Source: an uncultured Clostridia bacterium (GTDB lineage Bacteria; Bacillota; Clostridia; UBA1381). From it: a stretch of DNA of 37,779 nt. The notes below the pieces were generated by a model. That model was given only the letters and a program-made list of their open reading frames with translations, did no database searches and was not told where the DNA came from. The number at the start of each line of letters is the position of its first letter. The stretch's first letter is position 1. The position numbers and the translations under genes are program-made. Location of the stretch: contig CAKSGP010000001.1 in the NCBI GenBank assembly GCA_934454745.1, positions 1 to 37,779 of the forward strand. Direction: 5' to 3'. Shown one piece after another: positions 8,797 to 30,216 of this stretch.

Positions 8797-8815
8797 CCCT
8801 ATTATCAGTATTAAC

Positions 8816-9736: not shown

Positions 9737-9899
9737 AATATTCTCCATTCTGCCGCTAAAGTTTAAGTGCGCATAGAAATCAAAATCTCCGCCAGCGACT
9801 ACCGAAGATTAAATCACTGTGTATCCGCCATTTATAATAGATGAGCCTTATGCCATATTTTATTGTGTTCGGTACGATTTATCACACTAATAACCTTCT

Positions 9900-11597
9900 T
9901 TAAAAAATTTCCGGATTCTCGTAAACCATTGCAGCAAATAATGATGCCGACCAACCGTAATCCCTAATTGACTGATCAGTAATAATCAAATTGCCGGGTT
10001 CGACCGGATCACCTTTACGCCTTAACCGTTTTGGTGTTTTTTGCATATTGTTATCATAGTATTCGAAAAAAACTCCCTCGTTTTCGTACCAACGCACTAA
10101 TTCGTAAACAACTTTTTTAATAATATTCTTGGCAAGATTTTTATAACCGTATCGTATAAGCCCATTGCATATAAAATATACATAATTTATCCAAACCGGT
10201 CCGCGCCACATATCTGTTCCGAAGGTCGGATCGGTAATAGAAAGTGATGGGCATGGTAATGGGGTTCCAAAATCTTTTTCGTCATTTAATGATCTCACAA
10301 GATACTCTGCTTGTTCTTCAGTGCAAGCACCTGCAAAAAGAGGAATATACGAAGCTATGCTTTTTACTTTTGAAAATTCCTTTGTTGAGCATATTCTGTC
10401 ATAAAAGAAATTTTGCTTACTGTCCCAAAGCAATGTTTGCATTTTTTCTTTAAGTTGATTATATCTTGCAACCCAAATGGCCTTTTCTTTGTCGCGGCCG
10501 TAAATTTCACATAAAGAAATCATTGCCTCGTACTCATTAAGCATGAATCCTGTAAAATCAATATGATCCATTTCAACAATCACATCGAATCTTGAAGAAT
10601 TATCCATTCCGCTTTCAGCACAGGCGCAGTTTTCTCCTGTGTCTTCTATACACCAATGGAACATACCGTCCGGTGTGCTTCTTTCACGTATATCCCATTC
10701 AAGATAGGCCGATATTTTATCTAAACGGTCTTCAAACCACTCTTTTTTCCCAGTTTTTTTTATAAGACTCAAAACACCCCAAGCAATTACAGGTGGCTGT
10801 GTTATATTGGAACGTTTGTCAGGATCCGCTCTATGTGGAATAAAACCATTTTCAAGTTCGGAATCAAGTACAGAATAAATACTGTCTCTTGCAAGGGTAG
10901 GTTCAATATAAAAATTGCCTATACTGTGAAAAATAGAATCCCAAAGCCAAAGCGCCTTATGTGGCAGTCTATCGGGAGTTGTCCATCTTTGTTTAAACAT
11001 ACCCTGAGGTGAATAAACCTGCGATTTCATAATAGATAATGTTTTGGCAAGCGTACGCGCGACCCTTTGATTTTTAATTGCAGGCTTTTGAATATTATCA
11101 AAAAATGCTTTTTTTTCTAATATTGTTTTTTCAACATCCAATGCTGAAACATAATGTGACTTTTTATCATAGGAAAACATAAAATAATCATGCTCACCAT
11201 CAGAGTTAAGTACCAAATCAAAGCTATGTCCGTCAGTCATACAGGAATCGGTAACTTTCATTATCTTCTCCTCGCCGACAATGGCCCTAAAGGTACCTGC
11301 GGGGCATTTTCCGATAATAGAGTTGGATGAAACGAAGGAAAATACGATTTCTGCATTTTCTCCCTTTTCATTACTCATTTTACCGTAAATTATGTCCGAT
11401 GCAACAATTTGCCAAACAAGTTTGGTAAATTGTTCATATTTAAGTGATATGTATATTTCGGATGACGGTTCGGTATAAAATCGCACACCTATTCGGTCGC
11501 CCATCAATATTCCCGCAAGCTGGTTATGATAATCAACAACAAAATCCAATCCGGACGCTGCAAACAGTGCTCCGGCTCCCCATATATCAGGATACAT
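9900..11597 (-). CDS. (alpha/alpha)6-barrel glycoside hydrolase, GH63/GH37-like (trehalase / mannosylglycerate-hydrolase-like)
   Basis: LWLWDSIFH, GFIPH, TQPPVIAWG, ESGMDNSSRFD (compare ESGWDxSxRW in trehalases), WRGPVWINY and FFEYYD. I place the start at MYPDIWG (cat 11595-11597) behind GGGGGA. The 49 upstream codons of the track ORF overlap the GH4 gene and are rejected. Confidence 0.7.
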   Translation of the reverse strand: MYPDIWGAGALFAASGLDFVVDYHNQLAGILMGDRIGVRFYTEPSSEIYISLKYEQFTKLVWQIVASDIIYGKMSNEKGENAEIVFSFVSSNSIIGKCPAGTFRAIVGEEKIMKVTDSCMTDGHSFDLVLNSDGEHDYFMFSYDKKSHYVSALDVEKTILEKKAFFDNIQKPAIKNQRVARTLAKTLSIMKSQVYSPQGMFKQRWTTPDRLPHKALWLWDSIFHSIGNFYIEPTLARDSIYSVLDSELENGFIPHRADPDKRSNITQPPVIAWGVLSLIKKTGKKEWFEDRLDKISAYLEWDIRERSTPDGMFHWCIEDTGENCACAESGMDNSSRFDVIVEMDHIDFTGFMLNEYEAMISLCEIYGRDKEKAIWVARYNQLKEKMQTLLWDSKQNFFYDRICSTKEFSKVKSIASYIPLFAGACTEEQAEYLVRSLNDEKDFGTPLPCPSLSITDPTFGTDMWRGPVWINYVYFICNGLIRYGYKNLAKNIIKKVVYELVRWYENEGVFFEYYDNNMQKTPKRLRRKGDPVEPGNLIITDQSIRDYGWSASLFAAMVYENPEIF

Positions 11598-14752: not shown

Positions 14753-16528
14753 TTAATCAATTGTGAACATATGCAGAATATTATAACCGTCAGAATATTC
14801 TATCAGATTATCAAGTCGTGCAGTCTGTTCAAGCTTGTTGGTAATCAAAAGTGCTATTTTATAAGTTCCGGTTTTATTCGGAAGTGTCATGTTCGCATTC
14901 ACGTTATGCACAAGAAGCGTGCGGTCGGTATAATCGGCAGGATTTGTAGGATGCCAATCTTCCGGATTGCCTGCCTGCACCTTAGATATTACATTATTAT
15001 TTTCATCTAAAATTACAAAGTAGCTTGAAAGATTATGACCTGTAGCCATTCCGTAGTTTTGCAGGTACATATTTAATTTTATCTTTGATCCTGCCTTGGT
15101 TCCGCCGGTCACCGAAAGATTTTTGGCTGAAAACCTGTAACCGAGATGATCCCTTATGTACTCGAAAGCATTGCGTTGCACATTGCCGCCATCTTTATCT
15201 GTAAACCACGCATTACTGTAATGTACTCCTATATTATCAAGTATTTTAGGCGTAACTTCCTCACATTTCCAACCGTAAAGGATTGTTTGCTCAATAGGAA
15301 CGCCGTACATTGACATATCACCGTAAGAATGGTTGGCACTAAAAGTGGAAAGCCTTAACTCGGACATGGTTTCAATAGAACTGTAAGCATCAACATACGA
15401 ATTTGATTCATCTTTGAAATATCTTGAGGTGAAAAGCTCTGCATCCATTATGGCATACGGTGCTTCTTTCATACCGACATCCCAATATCCGCCGTAATTG
15501 CCCGGTCTCCAATAAGATTGACCCATATCTGCATCCGGATAAATTTTTCCAAAAAACGCATCACAGGCATAGCCCACACGATTATATCGGGGGTGGTCCT
15601 TGCTCAGAAGCATTGTTTTCCAATATGGTTGACGCATATTTATGTATAACGCTTTAGGAACCGTATCAAGTACTAATTCAACAACCTCTGTGAGACCTTC
15701 GTTGACTTGCTTTTGATATTCTTCCGCAGTCAAATCCGCTCTGCTCACTCCGTCATCCAAAGGCGTATCACCCAAAGATGTCCATTCTCCGTAATGTCCG
15801 AAAAGATTAACGCCTACACTGTAAATCGCCTCTTCCCATTTTTCCCAAATCTTACTGTAGTAGTTTTTTACGTGGTATATAATAGTGCTTTTTCTTGCAC
15901 CGCCTCTGATTGCTTCCGACACACCCGTATAATCTGTACTGTAGTGCATATAGTAAAAACCCAAATACATTTTTATGCCAAGATCCTTATATACCTTACA
16001 AACCGTATTTATGTATTCTATAGCCTCATCGGGAATGATTTTTTCATTCTTGTAATTGTACATTATAAAATATACGCGGGATACCGTTACACTCTCGCTA
16101 ACGGTATTGATGGATATATCGTTCTTTATACGTGAATAAAGCTTTTCATAGGTATAGTTTTGAGATTCGTTGCGAAGCTTACTGATATCGGGAACAACGT
16201 AATCTTCCTCAGAACGCCAGCCACGATCCGGATTACCGTTAAGCAAAACGCTGTTTTCTGCCGGAAGCGCAGTAAATGTAAGCTGTGCAGTAGCGGGGAC
16301 AGATATTTTCTCAGTTGTATTTTTTGTTTCAGAATAAGACAGCGAACTGTCAGATGAAGAATTGTCGGAAGAGGAATTATCCGACGAAGTGTCGTCAGCG
16401 GATGTCGTACTGCTGCTTGATGAATTATCAGGCTTTGGGTTGCTTGGCTTTTTGCTGTCACTGCATCCGGTAAAAAGACTAAGCATAAATACAAAACACA
16501 GTAAAACTGAAACTAATCTTTTATTCAT
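14753..16528 (-). CDS. Lipoprotein with a TIM-barrel glycosidase-like body (DUF4874/DUF4832-like)
   Basis: Lipobox LSLFTGC. A ~40-aa Ser/Asp-rich linker is encoded at ~16342-16459. The motifs NGNPDRGWR and LFGHYGEWT recall the DUF4874/DUF4832 putative hydrolase pair. The family assignment is from memory only. Confidence 0.55.
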   Translation of the reverse strand: MNKRLVSVLLCFVFMLSLFTGCSDSKKPSNPKPDNSSSSSTTSADDTSSDNSSSDNSSSDSSLSYSETKNTTEKISVPATAQLTFTALPAENSVLLNGNPDRGWRSEEDYVVPDISKLRNESQNYTYEKLYSRIKNDISINTVSESVTVSRVYFIMYNYKNEKIIPDEAIEYINTVCKVYKDLGIKMYLGFYYMHYSTDYTGVSEAIRGGARKSTIIYHVKNYYSKIWEKWEEAIYSVGVNLFGHYGEWTSLGDTPLDDGVSRADLTAEEYQKQVNEGLTEVVELVLDTVPKALYINMRQPYWKTMLLSKDHPRYNRVGYACDAFFGKIYPDADMGQSYWRPGNYGGYWDVGMKEAPYAIMDAELFTSRYFKDESNSYVDAYSSIETMSELRLSTFSANHSYGDMSMYGVPIEQTILYGWKCEEVTPKILDNIGVHYSNAWFTDKDGGNVQRNAFEYIRDHLGYRFSAKNLSVTGGTKAGSKIKLNMYLQNYGMATGHNLSSYFVILDENNNVISKVQAGNPEDWHPTNPADYTDRTLLVHNVNANMTLPNKTGTYKIALLITNKLEQTARLDNLIEYSDGYNILHMFTID

Positions 16529-19500
16529 CGCTTATTCCTCCCCCTAATGTATTTTCCCTGTCTTTACTGTCCGTAAGCAAGAGTACCTTTTTACGGCGTT
16601 TAAGCAATAAAATAACCGTTATCCCCGCGCCTGCCGTCACGACTGCCGAGATTACTATTATAGCAATAATCCAACCGGAAGACTCGTCTGTCGGCTTTCT
16701 TCTCTTTTTTATAATTCTTTTAATAAGTGTTTTTTTATCGCCCTTATTTTTATTCTGAGAACTGTCCGTTATATCAGATGAATAATCCTCTTCATTCCCT
16801 TTTGGTTCATTAAACCACGGATGTTTATAAATCTCATCCATATCATACAACATATCACCCACAAGCTGCGCCTGCGTGTAAATCGAAGTAGGGGGATATA
16901 TTGCTATTCCGCGGCCGTTTTTCAGAGGTACAAGAACAACAGTATAATAAGTATTCGTAGAAAGACCGTCCACCGAAGCCATATTAACATTATTGCCAAC
17001 AATAAGAGATTTCAAATATTTATACAATGTAACATTATAAAGATCCTTATCGGCAAAATTCTCATATACATCAATACGGTATCCGTCGGCTCCGGGAAAG
17101 AAATCCCACCCCACGCTAAAGGAATGTCCAGAAACCTCATCTTGAATCACAAAGTAATCGTTATTAGTAGTTTCCGGAAGCGAATCGTAAAACGATCCTG
17201 CATCACCGGGTACATCAAATGGGTTATATGCTATATCGTCGGCATTCATTATTTTGCCCGTAAACACATTTCTTGCCTTATCGGCTCCGTCTACAAAGGC
17301 TCCGTTATGAGATAAAACCCCATTTTTCGATAACCACATTCCTCCGAAGAAAGCTTTTTGGCTGTTAATAAGGCTGCCGTCGTCATTACTGCCGCCAAAC
17401 TCTCCAAATCCAAATACCACACGGTCTACCACCTCATATTCGGAAAGCACTTCATTTTTGCCCTTAGAATCCTTGTATGTTTCAAGCGCCGAAAGCGGTA
17501 CATAAACATATCCTTCAAATCCGCTTGGCAAGTTAATTCTCTGACCGACAACCGTAACATTTGACCAATTAGTTGCTCCGTCCTGTAAAGTTGCAATCAC
17601 GGCGGTGTATTTTACAGAATAATATTTACTTTCAGAGGTTCTTAACTGGAAGAAGAGCGCGCTCTTACCACCTTTCTTTGTTTCAGGAATGTTAAGGTAA
17701 AAGACAAGACCTTTAGAGCCTTCAAGTGAAAACGGCATTGATACCGAAAATCTTGGGAAATGATCGCCGTGTATCCAAACATACTCCGAGCTTGTAAATT
17801 CAAGACCCCGTGTTCCGAACGGCGCATCGTAATATCCGGTTTTTTGGTCGGTTGCTTCACCGTTTTCATCAAGAACCTCCGAAAGCGAGTCATTCTCATC
17901 CGGTATATCATTTATTACAGTTGCAGCAAATTTACTATTTGCTTCATTCTTATGATCCGATGAAATTGCGGTGCTAATACTAAAAGTCTCATTGATATCG
18001 TATGAGTCAAACGGAATTTTAACTGACTCCCAAACAGCAACATCGTCACGATCATATTTTTTCGGAACATTATTGCCGAAAAGATTTATCTCGCCCATAC
18101 CGTATAGCTTTAGCTTGTCGGCGTCTGCACTGTAATCAAGAAAAGCTATCGTTCCTATCTTCGGGCTACCGTAATTTCCGCCGACCTTACGCCAACTCAT
18201 AAACAATTTTGAAACAGCGCCCTTAAGTCCTGCACCGGCATATGTTGTAATAGAGTTATAATCTATTTTTACCCACCCCTTAAAACCGGCGGGAATCAAT
18301 ATTTCGTTACTTGAATTTGCGGCAACCGTAGTCCAATAAGCATCTCCGTTTTGTAACAGGCTATATACAGCGCCTTCGGAAAGTCTGCCGTAATCCTCTG
18401 CTTTTACCTGAAGGAAAAATCGGTTTCCGACATTTTCCGGCATTTCAATATACATCATAATTCCGCCCGCAGAGCTAAGCCTTGCCTGATAGTCTGTATC
18501 AATATCAAATACTGTTCTCGGCGCATAGGCGCTGCCTTGAAGGACTACAGGTTCTCCTGAGGCGGACACCTCATATGCATAGCCTTGATTTATAGACGGC
18601 GTCAAGATATTTCCTATATTATTTACCGTAAGTTTTCCATCCGCATCATCTGAGCGGCTCAAATTACCCTGTACCACAAAGCCTGCCGAATAATCGCAAG
18701 CAAGCAAGCTTTGAATAACCTGTGTGCCGCCGAAATATATATCTGAATAATCATACTTACCGTTATTGATAACTATAAAACTTCCGAAACGAATAGATGA
18801 ATTTACATATACCTTTTCAAATCCAAAAACAAATTTTTTCACATTTTCCGGTTGCTTTTTAAAGGAAGCTGCAGGAATTCTTATCCATCCTTCAAAACCG
18901 GCAGGCAGTTTAAGAATGTTACTGCTCTCAACAGTCTCTTTTTGCCACTCGGCGGAATTTCCCATTCCAAGCAAATAATATGCAGCATTTTTATTTAACT
19001 CAAGCTCATTGCCGATAATTACCGCATTTTCGCCACTGTTTTCAAGGTTAACGTAAAAAAGTATTGCTTCACTCTGTGAAAGGGTAATGCCGGTTGATAC
19101 CTCCGTTTCTACGGCATTTTTCATATTCATAACAATATCATTTTCTTTTGCCGTGACAGTATAATTAACATATTTTGAAAGCTGTGATTTTTTTGTCTGC
19201 TCAAATGTAACCGCTCTCGCATTTTCGCCCATAGGGTAAAAATCTCCGAAGGTGATCTGTGAACCCGTATATGCCTTAATTGAAGTAATCGGCACTTCCG
19301 CATTTTTATCAACACGCATAGTGACAAGCTCTTTTGACCCGTTATTTACTGCCATAAATGTTCCGATTTTCAAATTGCCGTACTTACCGCCAAGCTCATA
19401 AGGCAAAATATTTATCGCTGTAAAACTAATTGCCGAAGTTGCTTTTTCAAGGGTATCTGTATGTAAAAAGCTGGAATACGGTATTCTTATCCAACCGCTG

Positions 19501-22500
19501 AAACCTTGCTCTACGGTAATTCTGCCATCAATTCCGGCGTCTACGCCCTTCCAGTTCTGGCTGTTACAGTCATACATAAAGTATTTAGAACCGTTAGTCA
19601 ATCCCATACCGCTGTCCCCAAGATCAATTCTGAAGCTTGAAGCAACAATGCCCTGCTTTTCAACATAAAACATTAAGGCCTGACCATCGTTTATAACAGC
19701 CGTATTATTTGTTTTAATGGTTGTATATCCGGTGCCTGCAGGAGCCTCGGTAACATAATACTTTTCTCCGAGAAAATCGCCAACAGTAATTTTATATGAA
19801 TTGTTAATTACGGATTCATCACATATAGCCTGCTTATCCGCCGTTCCTTGCTTTATGTGGAATCTGTTATCTATTTCGTCAAGAAAAGTTATGGCACCCA
19901 ATACCAATGAACCGTATTTTCCGCCAATGGAATCGGGGTATACTCTGATTATAGTTTGATTGAAATCAGTCGTTTCAGTACTGTTACCGGATTTAAAAGA
20001 AGAGATCGGTATTCTTATCCAGCCTTTAAAGCCTGCAGGAATTTCCATAAATCCAAACGAATTTTTATCGGTTGTGGTAAGCGCTTCCCACTCTCCTTTT
20101 GTAGTATCAAAACGGTAATACGGCAAATTCCTGTGACTCAGACACCAACCGCTCTTAATACCCAAACAAAGATTTATCGGAGCGGTAGCGTCACTATGGT
20201 CAACATAAAACAGCAACGAACCGTTTACATTTACTTTTTTGCCAAGCCCGGCATTAACATATAACGCCGTTCTTGTGTTTCCGTTTGAAATTGCCGAATT
20301 AAGATTGGAGTACTCGCCTTCTGCCGAAAGCTTGAATCCGGCAACCTCCCCTATAGGAGAGCTGATCACAAAATTAGTTTTTGATTCGGTATTAAGCGGA
20401 AAATCATTTCCAAGCGGAATGTAATTGTTGCTTACAAACATACTGCTCTCAAAAGCAGAGGCATTAGAAGGATCAATGCTGTCAACAAGATAAAAATCAC
20501 CTATAACGAGGCTTCCGGCTGCGCCACCCAAATTGTAAACAGAAAATCTAAGATTTTTAAGCTCTGTTACATTTGTTCTTAAAGAATTTACAGGCAGCAT
20601 AACCCACCCTGTAAATTCTGCCGGTAATGTTAAATAACTGCTGTCTGATGATAAATTTTGTACTGAATTGTAACCGCTGGATGTGGTTTTCGATTTTTTC
20701 CACACAGCTTCCTTGGAATTATAGGTATAATATTCTTTATTTGTACCGATACTGTACCAATTAAAAAGAATATTAAACTTGATTTCTTCCGTTGCGTTTT
20801 TATGATCAACATAAAACAGTAAAGCCTTATCAGTTGAATCCTGTGTAAAACCATTAGAGGCAAACAAGGTATTACCGCTTATCATAGTCTGATAACCGCT
20901 GGCGCTGCTGAATTCAAAACAGTCTCTGCCCTCGCTCAATTTAGAAACTGAAATTGTATTTAAATTTGAGTTGGTAAAGCCCGTTATGGTAAACGGAGTT
21001 GCAGAAAGTCGTGCCTTGGGATAAGTAACTGTAAACGGAGGATTGTTTTCAAGACCTCCGTGTTTTACAGATTCTACCGCAGTTGCCGTATACGGCGGAA
21101 CCTCGCCGCGTTCTTCTTTATATGTGCCGTTAGCAGCAGCGCCAGCTGAAAACTCATAATAATAACCGTTATCTATACCGGGGCTGTAAGAAGCATCATT
21201 GTTTTTGCTGCTAACCTGATAATAATCTTTATCAGCAAGGGTATTTGTTGCCGCATCCTCGGTGTTTATAACCGAAGAATTATAATAAGCCTTCTTATAA
21301 AGGTTAATATAGTTTTTCTCGCCGTCTATACGAATATCGATAGCGTTGGTAACAGCAGTTTTTGAAAGCATTACGGTACCTAAATATACACCGTCATTAT
21401 CAGTTAAAGCCTTTAAGGACTCTATTTTCTTTCCCTTTGCGCCATCAAATGAAGATGTCGGCGCAAGAACATAACCTTCAAAACCGTCTTTAATATCCGC
21501 CTTTCCCTCTGCGTCAACCGAAACGGCTTGCCATTTGCGCTCTCCGCGATTTAAAAGATAAACGGGTTCTTCGCCTTTTAGTCCGTATTTATCGTTAAGT
21601 AATAACGAAAGCTTGTTATTTTCACCTAACGACTGTCTTACATAAAGAATTACCGCACCGCCGGTACTAAGCTTAGCAGAACTATCCTCAGTAAAGTTAA
21701 GCAAAGCGGATTTGCCTTTCGTAAAATAAGTATATCCGTTTGAAAGCGCGGTTTCATTTTCTACAGCTTCGGCAGAATTTACACTTTCCGTGTCTAAAAC
21801 CGTTACACTGTTATGAGCTCTTTCAATAACTAAGTCGGCAACGCGTTTATCGTTTTCACTTTCAGTTACAACAGCTTTAAGAAGATCCTTATTCCCATTA
21901 TCTACAAACATAAAGCTGCCGAAGGAAACTCCATCTGCAGTATAATCACCGCCAAGATTTTTGGGGCGGATATTTATACGGTAAACATAATTTGAAAGTC
22001 CGGCGTTGAAAAAGCTGCTATATGGTATACGCACCCAACCCTCAAAGCCTGCCGGAAAAACAATATGACCGAGTCTTCCGTCAATGTGAGACCTGTTTGT
22101 TTTTACCGTTTCCCACTCATCGTTTCCGCGAGCAAGCATCTGAACGGTCGAGCCGTTTTTAATTTGGATATAATCGTTAGCGCCCACTGCAGGATAGATT
22201 ACATCTTCTCCGCCGTCCTTGGTTTTTACCATTGACGCGCCCACCATTTGAAAAAGCCACTCGCACTCGGGAGCTTCTGATGGCATTTTTACATAAAATA
22301 AAACGGCTTCATCTTCCTTAAATTCCGTAAAATTCGGAGTAACATTATTCCGCTTACTTCCCTCGGTGATAATAAATTCACCTTGGTTGTAAATATTTCC
22401 GACTTCGGCGCCGCTGTTATCAAAAGCTTTACCGTTTTTTAATGTTCCGAGTATATTGCCCTGAGTATCCACATACTTACTAAAGGATACTTTAACAGAG

Positions 22501-22811
22501 CCCGCACTATATTCCAAGGTCTGATCAAAGCTTATATCGGCCATTGCATTTACTTCATATGAAGTGTTTGCCGCAAGAGCGGCAGTTGCCCAACCGTAAT
22601 TAACAGTAGTGCTTTTAATTCCGGAAAGGGTGTTATCATACCTTTTTGAAGTAACGCCGAATGCGGTATTTGTAGAGCTGGCTTTATAAAAATCAAGAAG
22701 AGTTGCATTATATGCCGTTGTGTTGTCTGCCGCGCTGAAAACCTCCGGAACAAGCATTGCCGACATAATAATAAGTAAAGTTAAATAAACCGATAGTATT
22801 TTTGCCTTCAT
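16521..22811 (-). CDS. Giant (2096 aa) secreted, C-terminally membrane-anchored surface protein with 8 copies of an unrecognised repeat module
   Basis: Signal peptide MKAKILSVYLTLLIIMSAMLVPEVFSA. Eight P-x-G-F-x-G-W/Y motifs are encoded at ~22030-22059, 21461-21520, 20581-20640, 20001-20050, 19471-19520, 18861-18915, 18255-18300 and 17485-17540. An FN3-like segment lies near the C-terminus. The TM helix GWIIAIIVISAVVTAGAGITVILLL (~16602-16676) is followed by KRRKK. The stop overlaps the next gene by 8 nt. Confidence 0.85.
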   Translation of the reverse strand: MKAKILSVYLTLLIIMSAMLVPEVFSAADNTTAYNATLLDFYKASSTNTAFGVTSKRYDNTLSGIKSTTVNYGWATAALAANTSYEVNAMADISFDQTLEYSAGSVKVSFSKYVDTQGNILGTLKNGKAFDNSGAEVGNIYNQGEFIITEGSKRNNVTPNFTEFKEDEAVLFYVKMPSEAPECEWLFQMVGASMVKTKDGGEDVIYPAVGANDYIQIKNGSTVQMLARGNDEWETVKTNRSHIDGRLGHIVFPAGFEGWVRIPYSSFFNAGLSNYVYRINIRPKNLGGDYTADGVSFGSFMFVDNGNKDLLKAVVTESENDKRVADLVIERAHNSVTVLDTESVNSAEAVENETALSNGYTYFTKGKSALLNFTEDSSAKLSTGGAVILYVRQSLGENNKLSLLLNDKYGLKGEEPVYLLNRGERKWQAVSVDAEGKADIKDGFEGYVLAPTSSFDGAKGKKIESLKALTDNDGVYLGTVMLSKTAVTNAIDIRIDGEKNYINLYKKAYYNSSVINTEDAATNTLADKDYYQVSSKNNDASYSPGIDNGYYYEFSAGAAANGTYKEERGEVPPYTATAVESVKHGGLENNPPFTVTYPKARLSATPFTITGFTNSNLNTISVSKLSEGRDCFEFSSASGYQTMISGNTLFASNGFTQDSTDKALLFYVDHKNATEEIKFNILFNWYSIGTNKEYYTYNSKEAVWKKSKTTSSGYNSVQNLSSDSSYLTLPAEFTGWVMLPVNSLRTNVTELKNLRFSVYNLGGAAGSLVIGDFYLVDSIDPSNASAFESSMFVSNNYIPLGNDFPLNTESKTNFVISSPIGEVAGFKLSAEGEYSNLNSAISNGNTRTALYVNAGLGKKVNVNGSLLFYVDHSDATAPINLCLGIKSGWCLSHRNLPYYRFDTTKGEWEALTTTDKNSFGFMEIPAGFKGWIRIPISSFKSGNSTETTDFNQTIIRVYPDSIGGKYGSLVLGAITFLDEIDNRFHIKQGTADKQAICDESVINNSYKITVGDFLGEKYYVTEAPAGTGYTTIKTNNTAVINDGQALMFYVEKQGIVASSFRIDLGDSGMGLTNGSKYFMYDCNSQNWKGVDAGIDGRITVEQGFSGWIRIPYSSFLHTDTLEKATSAISFTAINILPYELGGKYGNLKIGTFMAVNNGSKELVTMRVDKNAEVPITSIKAYTGSQITFGDFYPMGENARAVTFEQTKKSQLSKYVNYTVTAKENDIVMNMKNAVETEVSTGITLSQSEAILFYVNLENSGENAVIIGNELELNKNAAYYLLGMGNSAEWQKETVESSNILKLPAGFEGWIRIPAASFKKQPENVKKFVFGFEKVYVNSSIRFGSFIVINNGKYDYSDIYFGGTQVIQSLLACDYSAGFVVQGNLSRSDDADGKLTVNNIGNILTPSINQGYAYEVSASGEPVVLQGSAYAPRTVFDIDTDYQARLSSAGGIMMYIEMPENVGNRFFLQVKAEDYGRLSEGAVYSLLQNGDAYWTTVAANSSNEILIPAGFKGWVKIDYNSITTYAGAGLKGAVSKLFMSWRKVGGNYGSPKIGTIAFLDYSADADKLKLYGMGEINLFGNNVPKKYDRDDVAVWESVKIPFDSYDINETFSISTAISSDHKNEANSKFAATVINDIPDENDSLSEVLDENGEATDQKTGYYDAPFGTRGLEFTSSEYVWIHGDHFPRFSVSMPFSLEGSKGLVFYLNIPETKKGGKSALFFQLRTSESKYYSVKYTAVIATLQDGATNWSNVTVVGQRINLPSGFEGYVYVPLSALETYKDSKGKNEVLSEYEVVDRVVFGFGEFGGSNDDGSLINSQKAFFGGMWLSKNGVLSHNGAFVDGADKARNVFTGKIMNADDIAYNPFDVPGDAGSFYDSLPETTNNDYFVIQDEVSGHSFSVGWDFFPGADGYRIDVYENFADKDLYNVTLYKYLKSLIVGNNVNMASVDGLSTNTYYTVVLVPLKNGRGIAIYPPTSIYTQAQLVGDMLYDMDEIYKHPWFNEPKGNEEDYSSDITDSSQNKNKGDKKTLIKRIIKKRRKPTDESSGWIIAIIVISAVVTAGAGITVILLLKRRKKVLLLTDSKDRENTLGGGISDE
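20495..21008. repeat. ~514-bp near-identical segment shared with 24225-24738
   Basis: The offset is a constant 3730 nt with no indels. It encodes LSATPFTITGFTNSNLNTISVS...GSLVIGDF in both giant genes. Confidence 0.85.
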
Positions 22812-22829
22812 AAAAGCTCCTTTCGAAAG

Positions 22830-22856
22830 GGCAACACCCGGCTTGCGGGTGTTGCC
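22830..22856 (-). other. GC-rich 11-bp-stem hairpin between the two giant genes
   Basis: GGCAACACCCG (22830-22840) and CGGGTGTTGCC (22846-22856) flank a 5-nt loop. The adjacent palindrome CCTTTCGAAAGG (22819-22830) overlaps the AAAGGAG RBS of the 2096-aa gene. Confidence 0.55.
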
Positions 22857-22869
22857 GGTTTTGAACAGC

Positions 22870-25812
22870 TTACTGATTCAGAAGAAATCGTCTTAACAAT
22901 GCGTCCTGCGTACCCTCTCCGGTCAAGTCAATAACACTGTTCGACTGATCGGCATTCTCATTTAAATAAACAAGATCGCATATATTTATATTTTCGTCCT
23001 TATTAAAGTCTCCCTGCTTATAAAACAAAGCGGTTTTGCCCGTGAAATCTATGTTAATAATATCAAGATCATCGCTTGTATTTATCGACATAATATCTGA
23101 AACCGAAAGACCGTTTGCAAGTGAATTAAAGTAGAATTTAATTCTGCTGAAGGATAATGTTTTTGAAACCGGAATCTTTACCCATCCCTCAAAGTTTTCA
23201 GGCAAGCAAATCATTCCGTCAGTTGAAACGCCTATCCATCCCTGCCTGTTCGTTGCATACGCCTTAACGTTTGACATATCTCCTACCGAAAGGGTAAATT
23301 TGCACTCTCTTTCGGTTTTTATATAAAGCATTATGGCTCCGCCCTCGGCAACGGTTCCTTTTGCGTTAATAGTTGAGTAAACAACATTGTTTTCATTTGT
23401 AAATACACCGTTTGCCACGCTGACATTACCGGTCACCTTTTCTGTAACCGTAGGAATATTGCCGTTTACGCCCTCATAGGAAGCTCCGTTTATAAAATGG
23501 GTGGGTGCAACCGTTGTAGCCGCCGATATATCGGAAAAAGTAACTGTGCCGACATCCATAGCCGCAGTCAAAACAGTAAAGTCATTAAATTTTGTAAAGG
23601 CACCGTTCGTTGTACTGTCATTTAAACAACCCGTATCACTGTAAATTGATGTAAGCGGAATTGATACTAAGCCCTCAAAACCTTTCGGAATGGTTATGGG
23701 AGCAATTGTTCTTCCCCACAGCTTATATTCTGTGTTTCCCGTGGATTTTTCCATCCATTTATCGGCGCAGTTGTCTAATAAATAGTACGGTTTATTTGGG
23801 GCAGTCAAGAAAAGATTGCTGCCGGTAACAAACTTATAATCGTCCGCAGTATCATTCTTCACATAAAACATTATTGAGCCGTTTTTAGTTAAAGCCATTT
23901 CATTACTCTGAACATAATAGTGCTGTGTTTTTGTAGTGCCGTCATAACTAATCTCACCGGATGAATTTGCCTGCTCTGTTCTTTTCTGTGTTGCAGTAAG
24001 GGTTGCGGTTTTTCCGCTAACCGAAATTGCAATATTTGATTGATTAAGATTAGAAGTCTGATAAATACCGTAATCCGAGGTCCGCTCTGTCTTGACTGCA
24101 GCAACCGTATCCGCTGCGGCAAACGGAAAATCGCCGCCGAGTGCTATTGAATTTGTGCTTACAAACACACTGTTGTTTAATGCCTCAGTATTTACAGCCG
24201 GATCTATATCGTCTATTAAAGTGAAATCGCCTATAACGAGGCTTCCGGCTTTGTCGCCCAAATTGTAAACAGAAAATCTAAGATTTTTAAGCTCTGTTAC
24301 ATTTGTTCTTAAAGAATTTGCAGGCAGCATAACCCAACCGGTAAATTCTGCCGGCAATGTTAAATAACTGCTGTCTGATGATAAATTTTGTACTGAATTG
24401 TAACCGCTGACTGTGGTTACAGACTTTTTCCACACAGCTTCATTAGCATTATAAGTATAATATTCTTTATTTGTACCGATACTGTACCAATTAAAAAGAA
24501 TATTAAAGTTGATTTCTTCCGTTGCGTTTTTATGATTTACATAAAACAGCAAAGCCTTATCAGTTGAATCCTGTGTAAAACCATTAGAGGCAAACAAGGT
24601 ATTACCGCTCATCATGGTCTGATAACCGCTGGCGCTGCTGAATTCAAAGCGACCTCTGCCCTCGCTTAATTGAGAAACTGAAATTGTGTTTAAATTTGAG
24701 TTAGTAAAGCCTGTTATGGTAAACGGAGTTGCAGAAAGCTTGCTGCTTCCAAGTAATTCGGCAGACTTATCTTCACCTACTGTAACGCAGTAAGAGCTGT
24801 TGTTTCCTTTATAATATTGGGCAAGCTGTTCTTCTTTTCCGACAATATCATAAAAGCCGTCGTATGAGTTCGTAAAACCGTCAAAAGAAAGAGAATTTGC
24901 AAAATAGCAACGGTTTTCGGCAAAATTGTAAGTTGTTGAGTTTACCTTTATTCCCACAGAATTTTCCACAGTATTTATATCTGCCGAAACAGTCATTAAA
25001 TTTGAAATTTCAATTACATTTTCGGTTGTAATCTTATCAAAATACAAATTGACTCTGTGCATATAGTTGCAGTTTGCAATAGCGGTTTTATTAACAAGCG
25101 TATCGTTGGGTATATATACCCAACCCTCAAAGCCTGCCGGAATAGTTATTGCTTTAGATGTTGATTTAGGACCTACACCGAGAGTAACATCTTTGTCAGA
25201 CCTAAACCATTTATCAGTACCGTCGGTAAGGAAAAGTGCCGTACTGTCTGCCATGGCAACATAACCCTGCGCATAATTTTCGCCGTTAAGCTTGATATTA
25301 CCGTTTTCATCAAATCCTACTGTTTGAAGTTCTGTGTAAAGCTTCGTTTCCTCTGCTGTTTTTCCAAGCTTAATATAGAACATAAAACCAACATCTTGTT
25401 GACTCAAATCAACAAGACCATCTAAGCCACTAAAGGTTGAATTATTATTTACAGAAGCAGTATAAAAGCACCTATAAATTGCTTGGTTTTTATAGGCTTC
25501 CACCGCATAAGCGTCAGCTATACTGTTTCCGTATTGCGGATTCCATGTGTAGGTTAAACGGTCGGAGGGAAGCGACTTCACAAGCGGCTCCTGATCGTTA
25601 TCTGCTGTATAATGTTCACCGAGGGTGGCTTTACCAGCAGAGAACGATCCTGCCTGCGGAAGTTGTGAACTTGAATATGAGCCCGATACTATATTGATGT
25701 TTTTTCCTTGAACAACCGCAGGTTCATTCTCTGCCATGGCTCCGATAAATATTTGCGAAACTAAAAGGAGTAATGCTAATAAGATTGCCGTTGATTTTGT
25801 GGTTTTTTTCAT
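22870..25812 (-). CDS. 980-aa secreted protein with 4 copies of the same repeat module and a C-terminal dockerin-like segment
   Basis: Signal peptide MKKTTKSTAILLALLLLVSQIFIGAMA. Module motifs are encoded at ~25100-25150, 24311-24360, 23641-23700 and 23161-23215. The C-terminal GDFNKDENINICDLVYL fits the DxNxDxxIxxxD calcium loop of dockerins. The second loop, DLTGEGTQDALL, is degenerate. Confidence 0.8.
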   Translation of the reverse strand: MKKTTKSTAILLALLLLVSQIFIGAMAENEPAVVQGKNINIVSGSYSSSQLPQAGSFSAGKATLGEHYTADNDQEPLVKSLPSDRLTYTWNPQYGNSIADAYAVEAYKNQAIYRCFYTASVNNNSTFSGLDGLVDLSQQDVGFMFYIKLGKTAEETKLYTELQTVGFDENGNIKLNGENYAQGYVAMADSTALFLTDGTDKWFRSDKDVTLGVGPKSTSKAITIPAGFEGWVYIPNDTLVNKTAIANCNYMHRVNLYFDKITTENVIEISNLMTVSADINTVENSVGIKVNSTTYNFAENRCYFANSLSFDGFTNSYDGFYDIVGKEEQLAQYYKGNNSSYCVTVGEDKSAELLGSSKLSATPFTITGFTNSNLNTISVSQLSEGRGRFEFSSASGYQTMMSGNTLFASNGFTQDSTDKALLFYVNHKNATEEINFNILFNWYSIGTNKEYYTYNANEAVWKKSVTTVSGYNSVQNLSSDSSYLTLPAEFTGWVMLPANSLRTNVTELKNLRFSVYNLGDKAGSLVIGDFTLIDDIDPAVNTEALNNSVFVSTNSIALGGDFPFAAADTVAAVKTERTSDYGIYQTSNLNQSNIAISVSGKTATLTATQKRTEQANSSGEISYDGTTKTQHYYVQSNEMALTKNGSIMFYVKNDTADDYKFVTGSNLFLTAPNKPYYLLDNCADKWMEKSTGNTEYKLWGRTIAPITIPKGFEGLVSIPLTSIYSDTGCLNDSTTNGAFTKFNDFTVLTAAMDVGTVTFSDISAATTVAPTHFINGASYEGVNGNIPTVTEKVTGNVSVANGVFTNENNVVYSTINAKGTVAEGGAIMLYIKTERECKFTLSVGDMSNVKAYATNRQGWIGVSTDGMICLPENFEGWVKIPVSKTLSFSRIKFYFNSLANGLSVSDIMSINTSDDLDIINIDFTGKTALFYKQGDFNKDENINICDLVYLNENADQSNSVIDLTGEGTQDALLRRFLLNQ
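24225..24738. repeat. Partner of the 20495-21008 repeat
   Basis: See 20495-21008. Confidence 0.85.
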
Positions 25813-25837: not shown

Positions 25838-28012
25838 TTATTTAAAGATTTTGTAATCTAAAGGCGCGATATTTTGATTTTCAAACTCAATTTCCTCATC
25901 ACTGTAGTTGCATACGATTCGCCAACCGTTTTCATATTCGGTAACACTCAGATCGCCGATATACTTATGGTCGGAAATTGCCTGATTTGCAAGCGTTGAG
26001 TGTATTTCCTTATAATCTGCGGTGTATGCAGTCATATTGTTTAAAAGAGAATCTACTTTTGAATTATAAAGGAAGTTTAAACGCGTATTTTTAAGTTCAT
26101 ACGGATCGCACCCCGTAACAGCATAGGTTGCGGACACGCCCTGTTCAAACGCCTTAAGTGCATACGCAGCTGTTTTGCTCTCGAAATTTACCGGCTCCGA
26201 TGAAAGCTTAATATACGAATGAAAAACCATGGCATAAAACGGAACGCTGTGGCTTTCTATTGAAAACCCGCTTGATTCAAGCGGTATGCCGTAAAGCTCG
26301 TCTGCCGCTCCCGCTATACAGGCATTCCCGGATTCAAGTGCAACGGAAATGTTACTCTTTTTTATATTTTCCATAGCTTTGATAATTGAATTTAGATAAG
26401 CTCCGCGGGTAACTCCCTTATCAGAGGAAAAGTCGCTTAATAGCTCTTCACCATAATGCTCAAGAACTATACCGGTGCCTTTCGGGATTTGCTTCAAAAG
26501 TCTTTTTAAAAGCTTTTGCTGATATTGTGCCGTATAAAAAGACCATGAGCCTTGATCTGCATTCCATTTTCCGTCTGACGACCTACGATAATGCTGCTTT
26601 ACTACGGTTTGATTAAGGCTGCTCATATAATCTTTAAATCTAAAGAAATCGAACGACCTGCCGTAAGAACGTTCGGTATTATATACCGTATAAACATTAT
26701 CGGCGCCTGCCAACCTTTTAAACGAGTTGTATCCCTTGTTTCCTCCGAGATTTGAAATATATTTCTCGCTTGTTATCGTTTTCGCTCCATAGCCGCCGCT
26801 CAAAAAACCGTAAAGAAAGAATGATGGGGCTGCTCCTCCGGATTCGGTAAGAGCCTTATACAACACGGTAAGGTCGTTAAAATCGGTAATTTTTTTAACC
26901 GAAGTAACGGGTATCCCCAAAACCACTTTTTTTTGCGGTACGGCGCCGAATGCCATAACAGACACCGCAGGAACGGCATCGTCTGTTTTATTTCCCAACA
27001 CCTTAGTTTCAGCAAGAAAATCTCTGTAGGTTCTTGCCATACCGCTGTAATTTGCATTTTCTCCGGAAAGCATATACAGTCTTACGGTAGGTTGAACGCC
27101 TATTGGTGCCGATTGAATTATATTAAGCGTGCGCTCGCCGCCGGAGCTGCTTTGAATGCCGGTCAAATCGTGTTCGCGGTAAACATACTTACTGCAAACG
27201 GTAAGCGCATTTTCAGCCATTTCGGCATTGATGTCGGCGTAAACATCTCCTGAGGTAATCACGGCAAAAAGCGCTGAATCATCTTTTACAGCACCGTAAA
27301 CCGGCAGCAAGGCTTTTTTGGCATCGGTTATAATAGGTGAAATAATATCCTGACAAGGGTCGCTACCGTAAACGTGTGCGGAATATGTGTCCTTTCGCGA
27401 AACCGAATCAGAGTAATTTATTACTGCTCCGCTGCCATCCGGAATAAATACATATCCATTCTGATCATTTGAACCGTACATTAAATTCGGCAACAATTCG
27501 ATATCAGTTATCTTGCTTTTTCCCTTTTCAGTCACTTCTGAGTAAACAATCGATATTTCTATGTAAGAATCTTTAAGTTTTACAGTAATAGGTACCGAAA
27601 ATCCGGTGCTTTCCGATTGAAACGAGAAGATAGTTTTTATTCCGTTTTTAATTTTTTTAATTTCAAAACCGGTTTCTCTGCTCGGTGCCTGAACAGTTGC
27701 TTCAATACCGTCATCCGCAGTATATGTTACACCTATTATTGAGGAAAACTTATCGGCGTCTGCAGTATTCACATTTTCCGGAAATGCTGTCCATCTATGC
27801 CCTGTTTGCTTATCAATAAGTATTATATTAGCGGTTTTAACATCAACGTAAAGTGCAGCCGAAGAATTATCCGCAATACCCATATATCCTGATAGGTCTA
27901 CCTGTAAGTCATATGGCTTTACTTGTTCCTTGCCATCTGCAGAAATATTTAAGATTGCCGAAGAGATTAATAACATTAATATACAAAGCAAGGATATAAG
28001 TTTAACTTTCAT
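25838..28012 (-). CDS. 724-aa secreted protein of unknown function (possibly DUF5696-type)
   Basis: Signal peptide MKVKLISLLCILMLLISSAILNISA. I recognise no catalytic motif. GYVFIPDGSGAVINY and the Yip1/ABC neighbourhood remind me of DUF5696 proteins, but this is unverified. Confidence 0.7.
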   Translation of the reverse strand: MKVKLISLLCILMLLISSAILNISADGKEQVKPYDLQVDLSGYMGIADNSSAALYVDVKTANIILIDKQTGHRWTAFPENVNTADADKFSSIIGVTYTADDGIEATVQAPSRETGFEIKKIKNGIKTIFSFQSESTGFSVPITVKLKDSYIEISIVYSEVTEKGKSKITDIELLPNLMYGSNDQNGYVFIPDGSGAVINYSDSVSRKDTYSAHVYGSDPCQDIISPIITDAKKALLPVYGAVKDDSALFAVITSGDVYADINAEMAENALTVCSKYVYREHDLTGIQSSSGGERTLNIIQSAPIGVQPTVRLYMLSGENANYSGMARTYRDFLAETKVLGNKTDDAVPAVSVMAFGAVPQKKVVLGIPVTSVKKITDFNDLTVLYKALTESGGAAPSFFLYGFLSGGYGAKTITSEKYISNLGGNKGYNSFKRLAGADNVYTVYNTERSYGRSFDFFRFKDYMSSLNQTVVKQHYRRSSDGKWNADQGSWSFYTAQYQQKLLKRLLKQIPKGTGIVLEHYGEELLSDFSSDKGVTRGAYLNSIIKAMENIKKSNISVALESGNACIAGAADELYGIPLESSGFSIESHSVPFYAMVFHSYIKLSSEPVNFESKTAAYALKAFEQGVSATYAVTGCDPYELKNTRLNFLYNSKVDSLLNNMTAYTADYKEIHSTLANQAISDHKYIGDLSVTEYENGWRIVCNYSDEEIEFENQNIAPLDYKIFK

Positions 28013-28031
28013 TTATCTACCACCCCCTTGC

Positions 28032-28736
28032 TTAAAGCCGGCGCACAATAATTTCACGGATTATATTCATAACAAAACTATATATTTGTTGGTAAATGCT
28101 TACAAATAAAAGAAGTAAAAATACAAAACAAACTATTATCAGTAAGGTCGCAAATACCGAAAATACTGTTTTTGTAACCGTATACTGATGAACCACCATC
28201 AATCCTAAAAATATAAGTATCACCGTCCATGCCAAACCGAAAAATGAAAAGAAGTTATAAAAGGTTGCCTCGGTTGTGGTAAATACATATGAAAGCACTA
28301 TATTCAAAGAAGTAAAAAGTATATACGGCAACAAAGAATACGTTAATGCAATCCAAATATCCCCCATACTTCCCTCACCGTCAACAAGGGTGCTTGTTGA
28401 CCAATTGCATATTGTGAAAATGAGCAGTGCGCCGATAGAAATTGCAAAAACGGTAAATAGGCTTACACCGTCATTGCCGCCGGGCATAAACAGATAGCCG
28501 GTTGCAGTTTGTTGCAAAAGTCTTACAATGAAAAAAAGTATTGCCATGGCATTAGCAATTATCATTGAGGATTTACCCTCATATTTCAAGTCGTTAAATG
28601 TCTCAATAGGATGAAAAAAAAGTTTGAAAGGATAAAGCAAAAACGACTTATGCCACCGAACAGGTGCTGTCTCTCTGCTGGTAATGCCCACAATTTTGTA
28701 TTTCAATGCTTTTATAAAAAGTTTTGTGTTTTTCAC
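28032..28736 (-). CDS. Yip1-domain integral membrane protein
   Basis: 234 aa. A cytoplasmic N-terminus (HPIETFNDLKYEGKSS) precedes five hydrophobic helices, which is the Yip1 topology. The start is a GTG at 28736, 9 nt after AAAGGAG. The nearby ATG at 28741-28743 is out of frame. Confidence 0.7.
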   Translation of the reverse strand: MKNTKLFIKALKYKIVGITSRETAPVRWHKSFLLYPFKLFFHPIETFNDLKYEGKSSMIIANAMAILFFIVRLLQQTATGYLFMPGGNDGVSLFTVFAISIGALLIFTICNWSTSTLVDGEGSMGDIWIALTYSLLPYILFTSLNIVLSYVFTTTEATFYNFFSFFGLAWTVILIFLGLMVVHQYTVTKTVFSVFATLLIIVCFVFLLLLFVSIYQQIYSFVMNIIREIIVRRL

Positions 28737-28752
28737 CGGACATTTCTCCTTT

Positions 28753-30216
28753 CTATTCAGATAGTTTCTTTCTGATCCACCTTATTATAAATATTATTAT
28801 AGCAAGTGCAGAAGCCCCACCGACAATTAAAACGACAAAATGATTTTGAACAAACTCTTTTCTGTATTCATTAAGTGCAAGTGAGTAAAAATATGTATCT
28901 CCGCCTTTTTCAAGATATTCCATTGCAAGTTTATATTCACCAAGATGATACTTTGATCTTCCCAAGCTGCAATATGCAAGAGGAAGGTTGCTATTGGCTT
29001 CTAACAACTCCTGCCATATCTGCTCAGACTCAATATATTCGCACCGTCTGTAATACTCCATTGCTTCAAGCAGCTTTTGCATATATTCGGTAGGAGAAAA
29101 CACCGTAATACTTCCTTTGATTTTGTCAAGAACAAGATAGCTTTCACCTATCTTTTCTATTGCGGAAATTTCCGAAAACTGCCCGTCACGGTCGCCCAAG
29201 CCGCCGAAAATCGCCATAAGGTTACATTCTTGGTCATAAAGAAACAGTCTGCCTGTTTGCCTATCGGCAACCAATATATTACCGTTAATATCGCAATTAA
29301 TATCTACAAATGTAGTGTTCTTATATGCCGACTGATAATCGCCGTATACTGTTTTACCGGAATTGGCAGAGGCAAACGTCAAAGTATTGGTTCCGGCAGA
29401 ATTAAGGCATTTTATATCCTGACCGGCCGCAACATTTTGTGAGGTGGCGTATATAAAGCTATCTTTGCCAAGACAAATATTACTATACGGAGCCGGCAAT
29501 TGCTTTGCAACGCCTTCTTTCTGTTCATCTGTAAAAAAACTTTTCAACAAAGAGAGCAGAAAGGTTTCAAATGTTGCCTCAACTTGATTGGGCGCAAAAA
29601 AATTCTTGAATTCATTATTCTCGTCAAACCGCAAAATACCCTGATAAATTGCAGACGAAGAAATCAGAATGTTATTGTTTTTATCAAGAATTATTTTTTC
29701 AGGCTGAAAAACAAAATTCTCATTTACCGAAACCATATTTGCGCCCGTGATATAACGAACAATTTCATTACCGGAATTCACAGAAATTGCACGGGCATTG
29801 CCCGTATCGCAAATATAGACCATTCCGTCCTCAGCATAAACCCCCATAGGATTTGAAAAGGTTTCAAGTCCATTTCCGCTTACTCTTTCAATTGTTCTGA
29901 TATGTTCAAATTTTTGATTTAAAACAACGATGCGGTTATTTCCCGTATCGGCAATATAAATTTGATTGCTCTTGTCAACAAATATATCTGACGGTGAATT
30001 TAATGCGCCTATTCCAAAATCTGTGCCGTAATAAACGGCAGCTGCGGTATACGTTTCAGGAGCAGGTATAGACTCGTTATTTTCGTCATATTGATAATTC
30101 AGCGGTGAAGGAAGTGCGCTTAAGGTTAAAGAACCTGTACAGATAATAACCGCTGCAATATAAGCGGTAATTTTCTTAAACAAATCAAATCTCCTCCTTT
30201 TGCTTTTTATAATCAT
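28753..30216 (-). CDS. NHL-repeat beta-propeller protein with a TPR-like segment and a C-terminal TM anchor
   Basis: N-terminal signal/anchor sequence. NHL signatures are IYIADTGNNRIVVLN, VYICDTGNARAISV, ILVADRQTGRLFLYD and others. A TPR-like region (AYCSLGRSKYHLGEYKLAMEYLEKG) follows, then the TM helix FVVLIVGGASALAIIIFIIRWI. Its start shares one nucleotide with the upstream stop (TAATG). Confidence 0.8.
   Translation of the reverse strand: MIIKSKRRRFDLFKKITAYIAAVIICTGSLTLSALPSPLNYQYDENNESIPAPETYTAAAVYYGTDFGIGALNSPSDIFVDKSNQIYIADTGNNRIVVLNQKFEHIRTIERVSGNGLETFSNPMGVYAEDGMVYICDTGNARAISVNSGNEIVRYITGANMVSVNENFVFQPEKIILDKNNNILISSSAIYQGILRFDENNEFKNFFAPNQVEATFETFLLSLLKSFFTDEQKEGVAKQLPAPYSNICLGKDSFIYATSQNVAAGQDIKCLNSAGTNTLTFASANSGKTVYGDYQSAYKNTTFVDINCDINGNILVADRQTGRLFLYDQECNLMAIFGGLGDRDGQFSEISAIEKIGESYLVLDKIKGSITVFSPTEYMQKLLEAMEYYRRCEYIESEQIWQELLEANSNLPLAYCSLGRSKYHLGEYKLAMEYLEKGGDTYFYSLALNEYRKEFVQNHFVVLIVGGASALAIIIFIIRWIRKKLSE

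Follow-up and report, generated by a model that had tools for sequence, protein, structure and literature searches.

An uncurated beta-sandwich module repeated in two giant surface proteins of a Clostridia sugar-utilisation locus

The window, a stretch of 37,779 nucleotides from an uncultured gut Clostridia bacterium (contig CAKSGP010000001.1 of assembly GCA_934454745.1), encodes on its minus strand two adjacent giant proteins, here called A and B, that share a repeated module of about 170 amino acids (aa). Protein A (16521..22811, 2096 aa) comprises a signal peptide, eight modules, an FN3-like region, a C-terminal transmembrane anchor and a basic tail, while protein B (22870..25812, 980 aa) comprises a signal peptide, four modules and a divergent dockerin tail. 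The module belongs to a genuine and sizeable family that curated databases do not name, and it is of a familiar type, namely a tandem beta-sandwich accessory module carried by anchored or dockerin-bearing surface proteins within a Clostridia sugar-utilisation locus. There is about an even chance that A and B act outside the cell as non-catalytic, multivalent glycan-capture proteins, composed of modules that resemble carbohydrate-binding modules (CBMs) and belong to an undescribed family.

Twelve copies of one module and its relatives

The core motif, searched as the regular expression F-[EKTS]-G-[WYL]-[VIM], has eight sites in A (aa 256, 444, 733, 928, 1104, 1306, 1510 and 1765) and four in B (aa 228, 490, 712 and 874). 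When 100 residues on either side of each site were aligned, four landmarks stood in register and in identical order in 12/12 copies: [AGS]-x-[ML]-F-Y-V, Y-x-x-L-x-x-G-x-x-x-W, P-A-G-F-E-G-W-V-R-I-P-x-x-S and G-G-x-Y-G-x4-G. This bears out an earlier note on the same DNA, made from the sequence alone, which had described landmarks recurring in one order. Since the copies are just 14-32% identical in pairwise comparison, the A3/B2 pair excepted, they were tested with an independent hidden Markov model (HMM) trained on 27 modules, all from other organisms. The model matched exactly twelve copies in A and B (8 + 4), with domain E-values of 5e-10 to 6e-38, and produced no match in the other six-frame open reading frames of the window or in 400 shuffled A/B sequences, recovering the same set that the note had counted.

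Two of the note's figures have to be revised. The domain itself measures about 165-175 aa, extended to about 190-200 aa in A1 and B1 by an insertion, and the 190-290 aa first reported is the spacing between copies. Similarly, the two proteins had been described as built almost entirely of repeats, whereas modules account for 65% of A and 69% of B, the remainder being made up of the signal peptide, an N-terminal region, two large inserts, the FN3-like region, and the anchor or dockerin-like tail.

All twelve modules lie on the minus strand. According to the HMM envelopes, those of protein A are A1 at 21885..22445 (aa 123-309, with its insertion after the FYV strand), A2 at 21330..21818 (aa 332-494), A3 at 20466..20972 (aa 614-782), A4 at 19863..20384 (aa 810-983), A5 at 19329..19841 (aa 991-1161), A6 at 18750..19232 (aa 1194-1354) and A8 at 17352..17861 (aa 1651-1820), with A7 at 18120..18623 (aa 1397-1564). 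The envelopes in protein B are B1 at 24967..25491 (aa 108-282), B2 at 24196..24702 (aa 371-539), B3 at 23515..24030 (aa 595-766) and B4 at 23056..23523 (aa 764-919).

Alignment scores with positional orthologs are 2-5 times higher than those with paralogs for A modules 1, 2 and 4-8 and for B modules 1, 2 and 4. Because other species have a separate ortholog for each module position, the array appears to be old and its copies individually kept, which indicates separate maintenance of the copies rather than a set of homogenised spacers. The near-identical pair A3 and B2 shares a 515-nt segment (20494-21008 and 24224-24738, both on the minus strand) with 93% nucleotide identity, in which the codon differences comprise 15 synonymous and 13 non-synonymous changes. 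As A3 is also the sole A module lacking a clear positional ortholog in other species, this likeness suggests gene conversion or a recent copying event between the two genes.

Searches of a word-indexed database returned no relatives when seeded with the module alignment, and 9 and 9 when seeded with full-length A and B. This type of search being nearly blind to the family, an exhaustive HMMER profile search was required, and over 1.84 billion representatives of clusters at 50% identity it yielded at least 756 members at E<=1e-3, 372 at E<=1e-10 and 116 at E<=1e-30. A genome scan with protein A alone as the query likewise found nothing; with the ortholog alignment, it identified A-type giants of 8-10 modules in Acutalibacteraceae genomes assembled from metagenomes. 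Shorter module proteins were found in Ruminococcaceae, Gallimonas and other Clostridia, and the source names, where given, read 'hypothetical protein [Clostridia bacterium]'.

The architecture of the best 147 of the 756 family members was surveyed. These proteins carry 1-10 copies, modules occupy a median of 61% of their length, 135 of the 147 have a signal-like N-terminus and 54 have a C-terminal segment resembling a transmembrane helix. Pfam domains were scanned in 80 of the 147, in sets of 36 and 44, and no Pfam family covered the module in any of them. The co-occurring domains were Dockerin (14/80), FN3 (10/80), DUF4874 together with DUF4832 (8/80, all in the set of 36; DUF, domain of unknown function), metallophosphoesterase (6/80), Laminin_G_3 (3/80), GDSL esterase (2/80), GH127 (1/80) and sialidase/BNR (1/80). 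FN3 and cadherin-like domains, where present, are separate from the module. One relative, P0010, has three modules fused to DUF4874/DUF4832 in a single polypeptide.

A further group of relatives, at about 8200-10450 in each of the loci L009-L015 of Gallimonas and other Clostridia metagenome-assembled genomes, consists of proteins of about 700 aa with one C-terminal module, preceded by an N-terminal region of about 490 aa that has no Pfam match. The gene in L009, from Gallimonas, is flanked by LacI, ATP-binding cassette (ABC) permeases for sugar transport and a nucleoside-hydrolase-like protein.

Predicted fold, conserved residues and the closest solved structure

No credible curated family was found for the module in Pfam-A or NCBIfam, whether whole A and B, their tails or single modules served as queries; the Pfam cut-offs were E<=1 on whole proteins and E<=10 on single modules. 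Profiles of Ig-like, FN3, cadherin, SLH and cell-wall-binding repeats in Pfam and NCBIfam gave no match to the module at E<=1, and an Ig or FN3 assignment was rejected. CBM11, CBM22, CBM6 and CBM35 had no Pfam match at the same cut-offs, and no CBM emerged from profile searches of the PDB. The earlier note's statement that the module corresponds to no known CBM, Ig-like, FN3, cadherin, SLH or cell-wall-binding repeat is thus sustained by the blank in both collections.

The fold was predicted with AlphaFold2. A first model, of A4 from an alignment of 38 modules, showed a beta-sandwich with a predicted local distance difference test (pLDDT) value of 82, a disordered stretch of 38 N-terminal residues and poor superpositions. 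A second model, of A7 (aa 1392-1566) with 52 modules and better-bounded input, reached a pLDDT of 95.9 and a predicted template modelling score (pTM) of 0.90, and it places all 175 residues in one compact beta-sandwich domain of 12 strands. Compared with the PDB by Foldseek, the A7 model had no match at E<=1e-3, and all template modelling (TM) scores were below 0.5. Its best match was 8SMQ (E 1.9e-3, probability 1.00, TM 0.38-0.46). The nearest PDB folds apart from 8SMQ are carbohydrate binders: CBM11 (6R3M, TM 0.41), CBM22 of Xyn10B (2WYS, TM 0.42; also the top match of the A4 model, E 2.9e-4) and, further among the neighbours, CBM6, concanavalin-type lectins and the sugar-binding domain of Fbs1. 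As these matches are of lectin and CBM type, the module is predicted to be a lectin/CBM-type beta-jelly-roll without a close solved relative, and the new fold that had been envisaged for it is not upheld. None of the CBM structures 6R3M, 2WYS and 1GMM attained a TM of 0.5 (0.35-0.46, with a root-mean-square deviation of about 10 Å or more). Neither of the two outcomes that would have refuted the note was obtained: the module belongs to no family described so far, and none of the characterised CBMs superposes well on it.

Conservation was assessed over 52 modules, using A7 numbering. F119 and G121 are invariant (52/52) and Y63 and W102 nearly so (49/52), followed by P126 (45), G118 (44), G162 (43), P116 (41) and G153 (40). 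At about 90% conservation or more, the only residues are thus Y, W, F and G, and P reaches 79-87%. Conservation extends to no acidic or basic residue and to no His, Ser or Cys in the 52 modules, which argues against catalysis; as the note had stated, no catalytic domain is evident in A or B.

The entry 8SMQ, the N-terminal domain of Clostridioides difficile CD630_25440 and CASP15 target T1176, is also the sole non-spurious profile match over all PDB chains, with marginal hmmsearch E-values of 0.015 and 0.085. Profile-profile alignment with hhalign gave a probability of 83% (P 8.8e-6) over 71 columns, using residues 12-136 of 8SMQ, and the aligned region spans the module from the FY-strand through the P-G-x-F-E-G motif. 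Its TM score is lowered because the crystal is strand-swapped. The structure is probably a distant solved relative of the module. Its depositors described a strand-exchanged beta-barrel oligomer without functional annotation (PMC10792529), and this CASP15 note was the only literature found on CD630_25440.

Predicted cell-surface attachment and the sugar locus

Protein A is predicted to be a type I membrane protein with its bulk outside the cell. Its hydropathy profile peaks solely at aa 3-25 and aa 2047-2071, and the second peak corresponds to a C-terminal transmembrane helix at 16599..16673 on the minus strand (aa ~2047-2071, WIIAIIVISAVVTAGAGITVILLL; maximum 2.59 at aa 2051), followed by KRRKK. 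The transmembrane anchor with a basic tail that had been proposed for this protein is therefore present, and the arrangement of signal-like segment, transmembrane helix and basic tail is retained in orthologs. Ahead of the anchor, a putative FN3-like region (16887..17159, minus strand, aa ~1885-1975) is suggested by the sequence and by a faint PF00041 match on the ortholog P0003; Pfam detected no FN3 domain in the window protein A itself.

The C-terminus of B had been described as a dockerin-like calcium loop. Type I dockerins are defined by two calcium-binding repeats of about 22 residues and by a Pfam PF00404 score at or above 22.9 bits. The tail of B (22873..23022, minus strand, aa ~931-980; GDFNKDENINICDL ... 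DLTGEGTQDALLRRFLL) scores only 10.5 bits against Dockerin_1 (E 0.73), below that threshold; its first loop, D-F-N-K-D-E-N-I-N-I-C-D, conforms, and its second is shortened. A canonical two-repeat dockerin with a PF00404 match occupies the same position in P0158, a B ortholog that is 93% identical (GDFNNDGSVNILDL...DLDGDDLIDAKDIAALRKHLLG), and the more distant B-like protein P0024 likewise ends in a canonical dockerin there, so the tail of the window B is best described as a divergent dockerin.

Read along the minus strand, the locus starts with a plus-strand AraC regulator, a pair of ABC permeases, an 890-aa solute-binding protein and two more permeases; it continues with an NHL-repeat protein, a Yip1 membrane protein, a DUF5696 protein, B, A and a DUF4874/DUF4832 protein; and it ends with a 505-aa protein orthologous to a solute-binding protein, followed by GH4, a GH63/MGH1-like hydrolase, an epimerase and an EamA transporter, with two PIG-L deacetylases and a Gfo/Idh/MocA oxidoreductase at the far end. 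By gene content this is a sugar-import and glycosidase locus, matching the glycan-import setting named in the note. The gene for the DUF4874/DUF4832 protein (14753..16528, minus strand, 591 aa) overlaps the stop of A with its start by 8 nt, and the DUF5696 gene (25838..28012, minus strand, 724 aa) lies directly upstream of B as a conserved neighbour.

Metagenome-assembled Acutalibacteraceae genomes preserve the locus in its entirety. Locus L001 follows the window order, with a solute-binding protein, permeases, NHL, Yip1, DUF5696, B-like, A-like, DUF4874/DUF4832, a solute-binding protein and GH4. Locus L002 has the window order minus a separate B-like gene, and a 1765-aa protein with a weak dockerin match, five modules and DUF4874/DUF4832 sits after its standalone DUF4874/DUF4832 gene. 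Together with the P0010 fusion, this conserved adjacency ties the module functionally to the DUF4874/DUF4832 protein. Sequence and profile searches of the PDB gave no solved relatives of the DUF4874/DUF4832 and DUF5696 neighbours, and no functional studies of DUF4832, DUF4874 or DUF5696 were found in the literature. Gram-positive Pel loci are accompanied by DUF4832 genes (bioRxiv 10.1101/768473), and a Ruminococcus cellulosome proteome included a DUF4874-DUF4832-dockerin protein (PMC7480376).

Several further features of the locus were observed. The N-terminus of the DUF4874/DUF4832 protein resembles a lipoprotein signal (…LF-x-G-C), and a Ser/Asp-rich linker comes next. The trio of DUF5696 (724 aa), Yip1-domain membrane protein (234 aa) and NHL-repeat protein (487 aa), at 25838-30216 on the minus strand, is kept in the window, L001 and L002, where it separates the permeases from B. 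In the 890-aa solute-binding protein (31966-34638, minus strand), the solute-binding domain covers just aa ~513-790, Pfam matches nothing in some 500 N-terminal residues, and the long form is kept in L001 and L002. A GC-rich hairpin, its stem 11 bp long (GGCAACACCCG / CGGGTGTTGCC), occupies about 22826-22856 of the minus strand in the gap between the stop of B and the start of A; the 61-nt spacer has a dG of -25.9 kcal/mol (z -3.8 vs shuffles), and the hairpin is followed by a short CUUUC and then by the GGAG ribosome-binding site of A. This element may be a partial terminator or an mRNA-stabilising structure that sets the B:A ratio. Outside the sugar locus, at the far end of the window, 1195-2223 on the minus strand encodes a Fic/DOC protein with a DeoR-type helix-turn-helix, and scans of the window against Rfam and for tRNAs gave no match.

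Proposed role, alternatives and known systems

Glycan capture by the modules is a plausible reading of the genomic context and of the gene fusions. Starting from the repeat, its single-domain beta-sandwich outside every curated family, the signs of secretion and anchoring, the conservation of the locus and the enzyme fusions in relatives, it may be proposed that the modules bind a ligand, that this ligand is a glycan and that the proteins of the locus divide the labour among them. In such a scheme, A, held by its transmembrane helix and basic cytoplasmic tail after export through its signal peptide, would project eight different modules from the cell surface, and the dockerin-type tail of B would attach its four modules to that surface through a partner with a cohesin. 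The modules would retain polysaccharide at the cell surface, the co-transcribed extracellular DUF4874/DUF4832 lipoprotein and the DUF5696 protein would cleave it, and the two ABC importers of the locus would take up the fragments. Breakdown would then be completed in the cytoplasm by GH4, the GH63-like enzyme, the PIG-L deacetylases and the Gfo/Idh/MocA oxidoreductase.

Several observations weigh against this proposal. Enzyme domains occurred in 0/44 members of the second Pfam set and most scanned members have none, so the argument that the module is accessory to enzymes rests on a minority of relatives. For 8SMQ, the closest solved relative, no function is known. Because no structural match reaches a TM of 0.5, the predicted similarity to CBMs is limited to the general fold class. 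The strongly conserved residues could all be structural, forming the PAGFxGW hairpin turn, the glycine-rich loop and the aromatic core, and the 52 modules have no conserved polar residue of the kind that a shared sugar site might require. Finally, the extracellular partners are DUF proteins that have no solved relative by sequence, so their part in glycan degradation is itself conjectural.

Some of these points favour the best-surviving alternative, which is unlikely but by no means negligible: that the modules are structural or adhesive beta-sandwich units, forming a stalk, a surface coat or a protein- or cell-binding adhesin without glycan specificity, and that A and B mainly space or present other components. 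Most relatives consist of modules only, with a dockerin or a transmembrane anchor; conserved glycine, aromatic and proline residues are typical of a structural core; and 8SMQ, the nearest solved relative, comes from a surface protein and forms oligomers through strand exchange. However, conservation between species, at an overall identity of 31-44%, holds for each module position individually, and the strong divergence among paralogs would be unusual for pure spacers. Fusion of the module to secreted hydrolase-like domains in relatives also speaks against a purely structural role, as do the sugar ABC importers that stand beside the A/B-type loci and at the sole single-module locus examined (L009).

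It is far less probable that the modules are divergent cohesins and A a membrane-anchored scaffoldin for B and for dockerin-tagged DUF4874/DUF4832 enzymes. A jelly-roll of about 150-170 aa repeated 8-10 times in an anchored protein does look scaffoldin-like, and dockerins are found on B orthologs and on neighbouring enzymes. Nevertheless, there was no Pfam Cohesin match at E<=1 and none in the PDB profile search at E<=10, and cohesins were absent from the top 50 Foldseek matches of both models. Moreover, the module shares its polypeptide with a dockerin in 14 of the 80 scanned relatives and also adjoins enzyme domains, and it therefore behaves as an enzyme-borne accessory module; on these grounds a cohesin identity was rejected. 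That the module is a small enzyme, for instance with lyase or esterase activity on a scaffold of jelly-roll or cupin-like type, which would render A and B poly-catalytic, was rejected as highly improbable. Cupins and similar enzymes do appear among the weak Foldseek matches, but the cupins reach just TM 0.16-0.31; no acidic, basic, His, Ser or Cys residue is invariant or nearly so in the 52 modules, and relatives carry the module attached to bona fide catalytic domains.

Within the glycan-capture reading, a more extensive version can be advanced only tentatively: the module would constitute a new carbohydrate-binding family whose eight (A) or four (B) position-specific copies, each conserved separately, read different features of one complex glycan, and A and B, together with DUF4874/DUF4832, DUF5696, NHL, Yip1 and the 890-aa solute-binding protein, would form an undescribed Gram-positive apparatus for surface glycan capture and import in which every extracellular part is a domain of unknown function. 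If the module binds glycan, for which it is a candidate, it would define a new CBM family, provide a handle on at least 756 clusters of 'hypothetical' proteins, of which the named examples come mostly from gut and rumen Clostridia, and offer a pointer to the substrate of the widespread DUF4874, DUF4832 and DUF5696 that travel with it. In practice, polysaccharide-utilisation loci of Gram-positive bacteria could then be annotated better in gut metagenomes; no new biological principle is expected, even if glycan binding is true.

Among known structures, 8SMQ resembles the module in its size of about 170 aa, its all-beta fold and its origin in a Clostridia surface protein. It differs in that the crystal is a strand-swapped dimer or octamer and the domain occurs as a single copy in a 358-aa protein; the sequence evidence for the relationship is marginal and the TM score is 0.38-0.46. 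Being without known function, it explains nothing of the mechanism of the module. The CBM functional class of CAZy denotes discrete, independently folding, non-catalytic modules within carbohydrate-active proteins. CBM11, CBM22 and CBM6 (6R3M, 2WYS/1DYO and 1GMM), the next-best Foldseek matches after 8SMQ, share with the module a two-sheet jelly-roll of 130-175 aa, and they are similarly used as non-catalytic modules of secreted, often dockerin-bearing, multi-modular Clostridia proteins. In contrast, no sequence-profile tie connects them to the module, their superpositions are as poor as given above, and the motifs FYV, Yx2Lx6W, PAGFEGWVRIP and GGxYG are foreign to them, judged by the missing profile matches.

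Gram-positive glycan-utilisation loci and the cellulosome and amylosome systems contain secreted, non-catalytic multi-CBM surface proteins with tandem binding modules, which a membrane anchor, a wall anchor or a dockerin holds in place and whose genes lie beside ABC sugar importers and glycosidases; 'X modules' of unassigned role are common in such bacteria. Unlike these systems, the locus described here combines a repeated module and DUF5696, DUF4874/DUF4832, NHL and Yip1 partners that are all uncharacterised, A is tethered by a C-terminal transmembrane helix rather than by a sortase or SLH anchor, and no cohesin partner was identified. In their general organisation A and B correspond to the multi-CBM surface proteins, being likewise secreted, composed of tandem modules, tethered by an anchor or a dockerin, and encoded beside importers and glycosidases.

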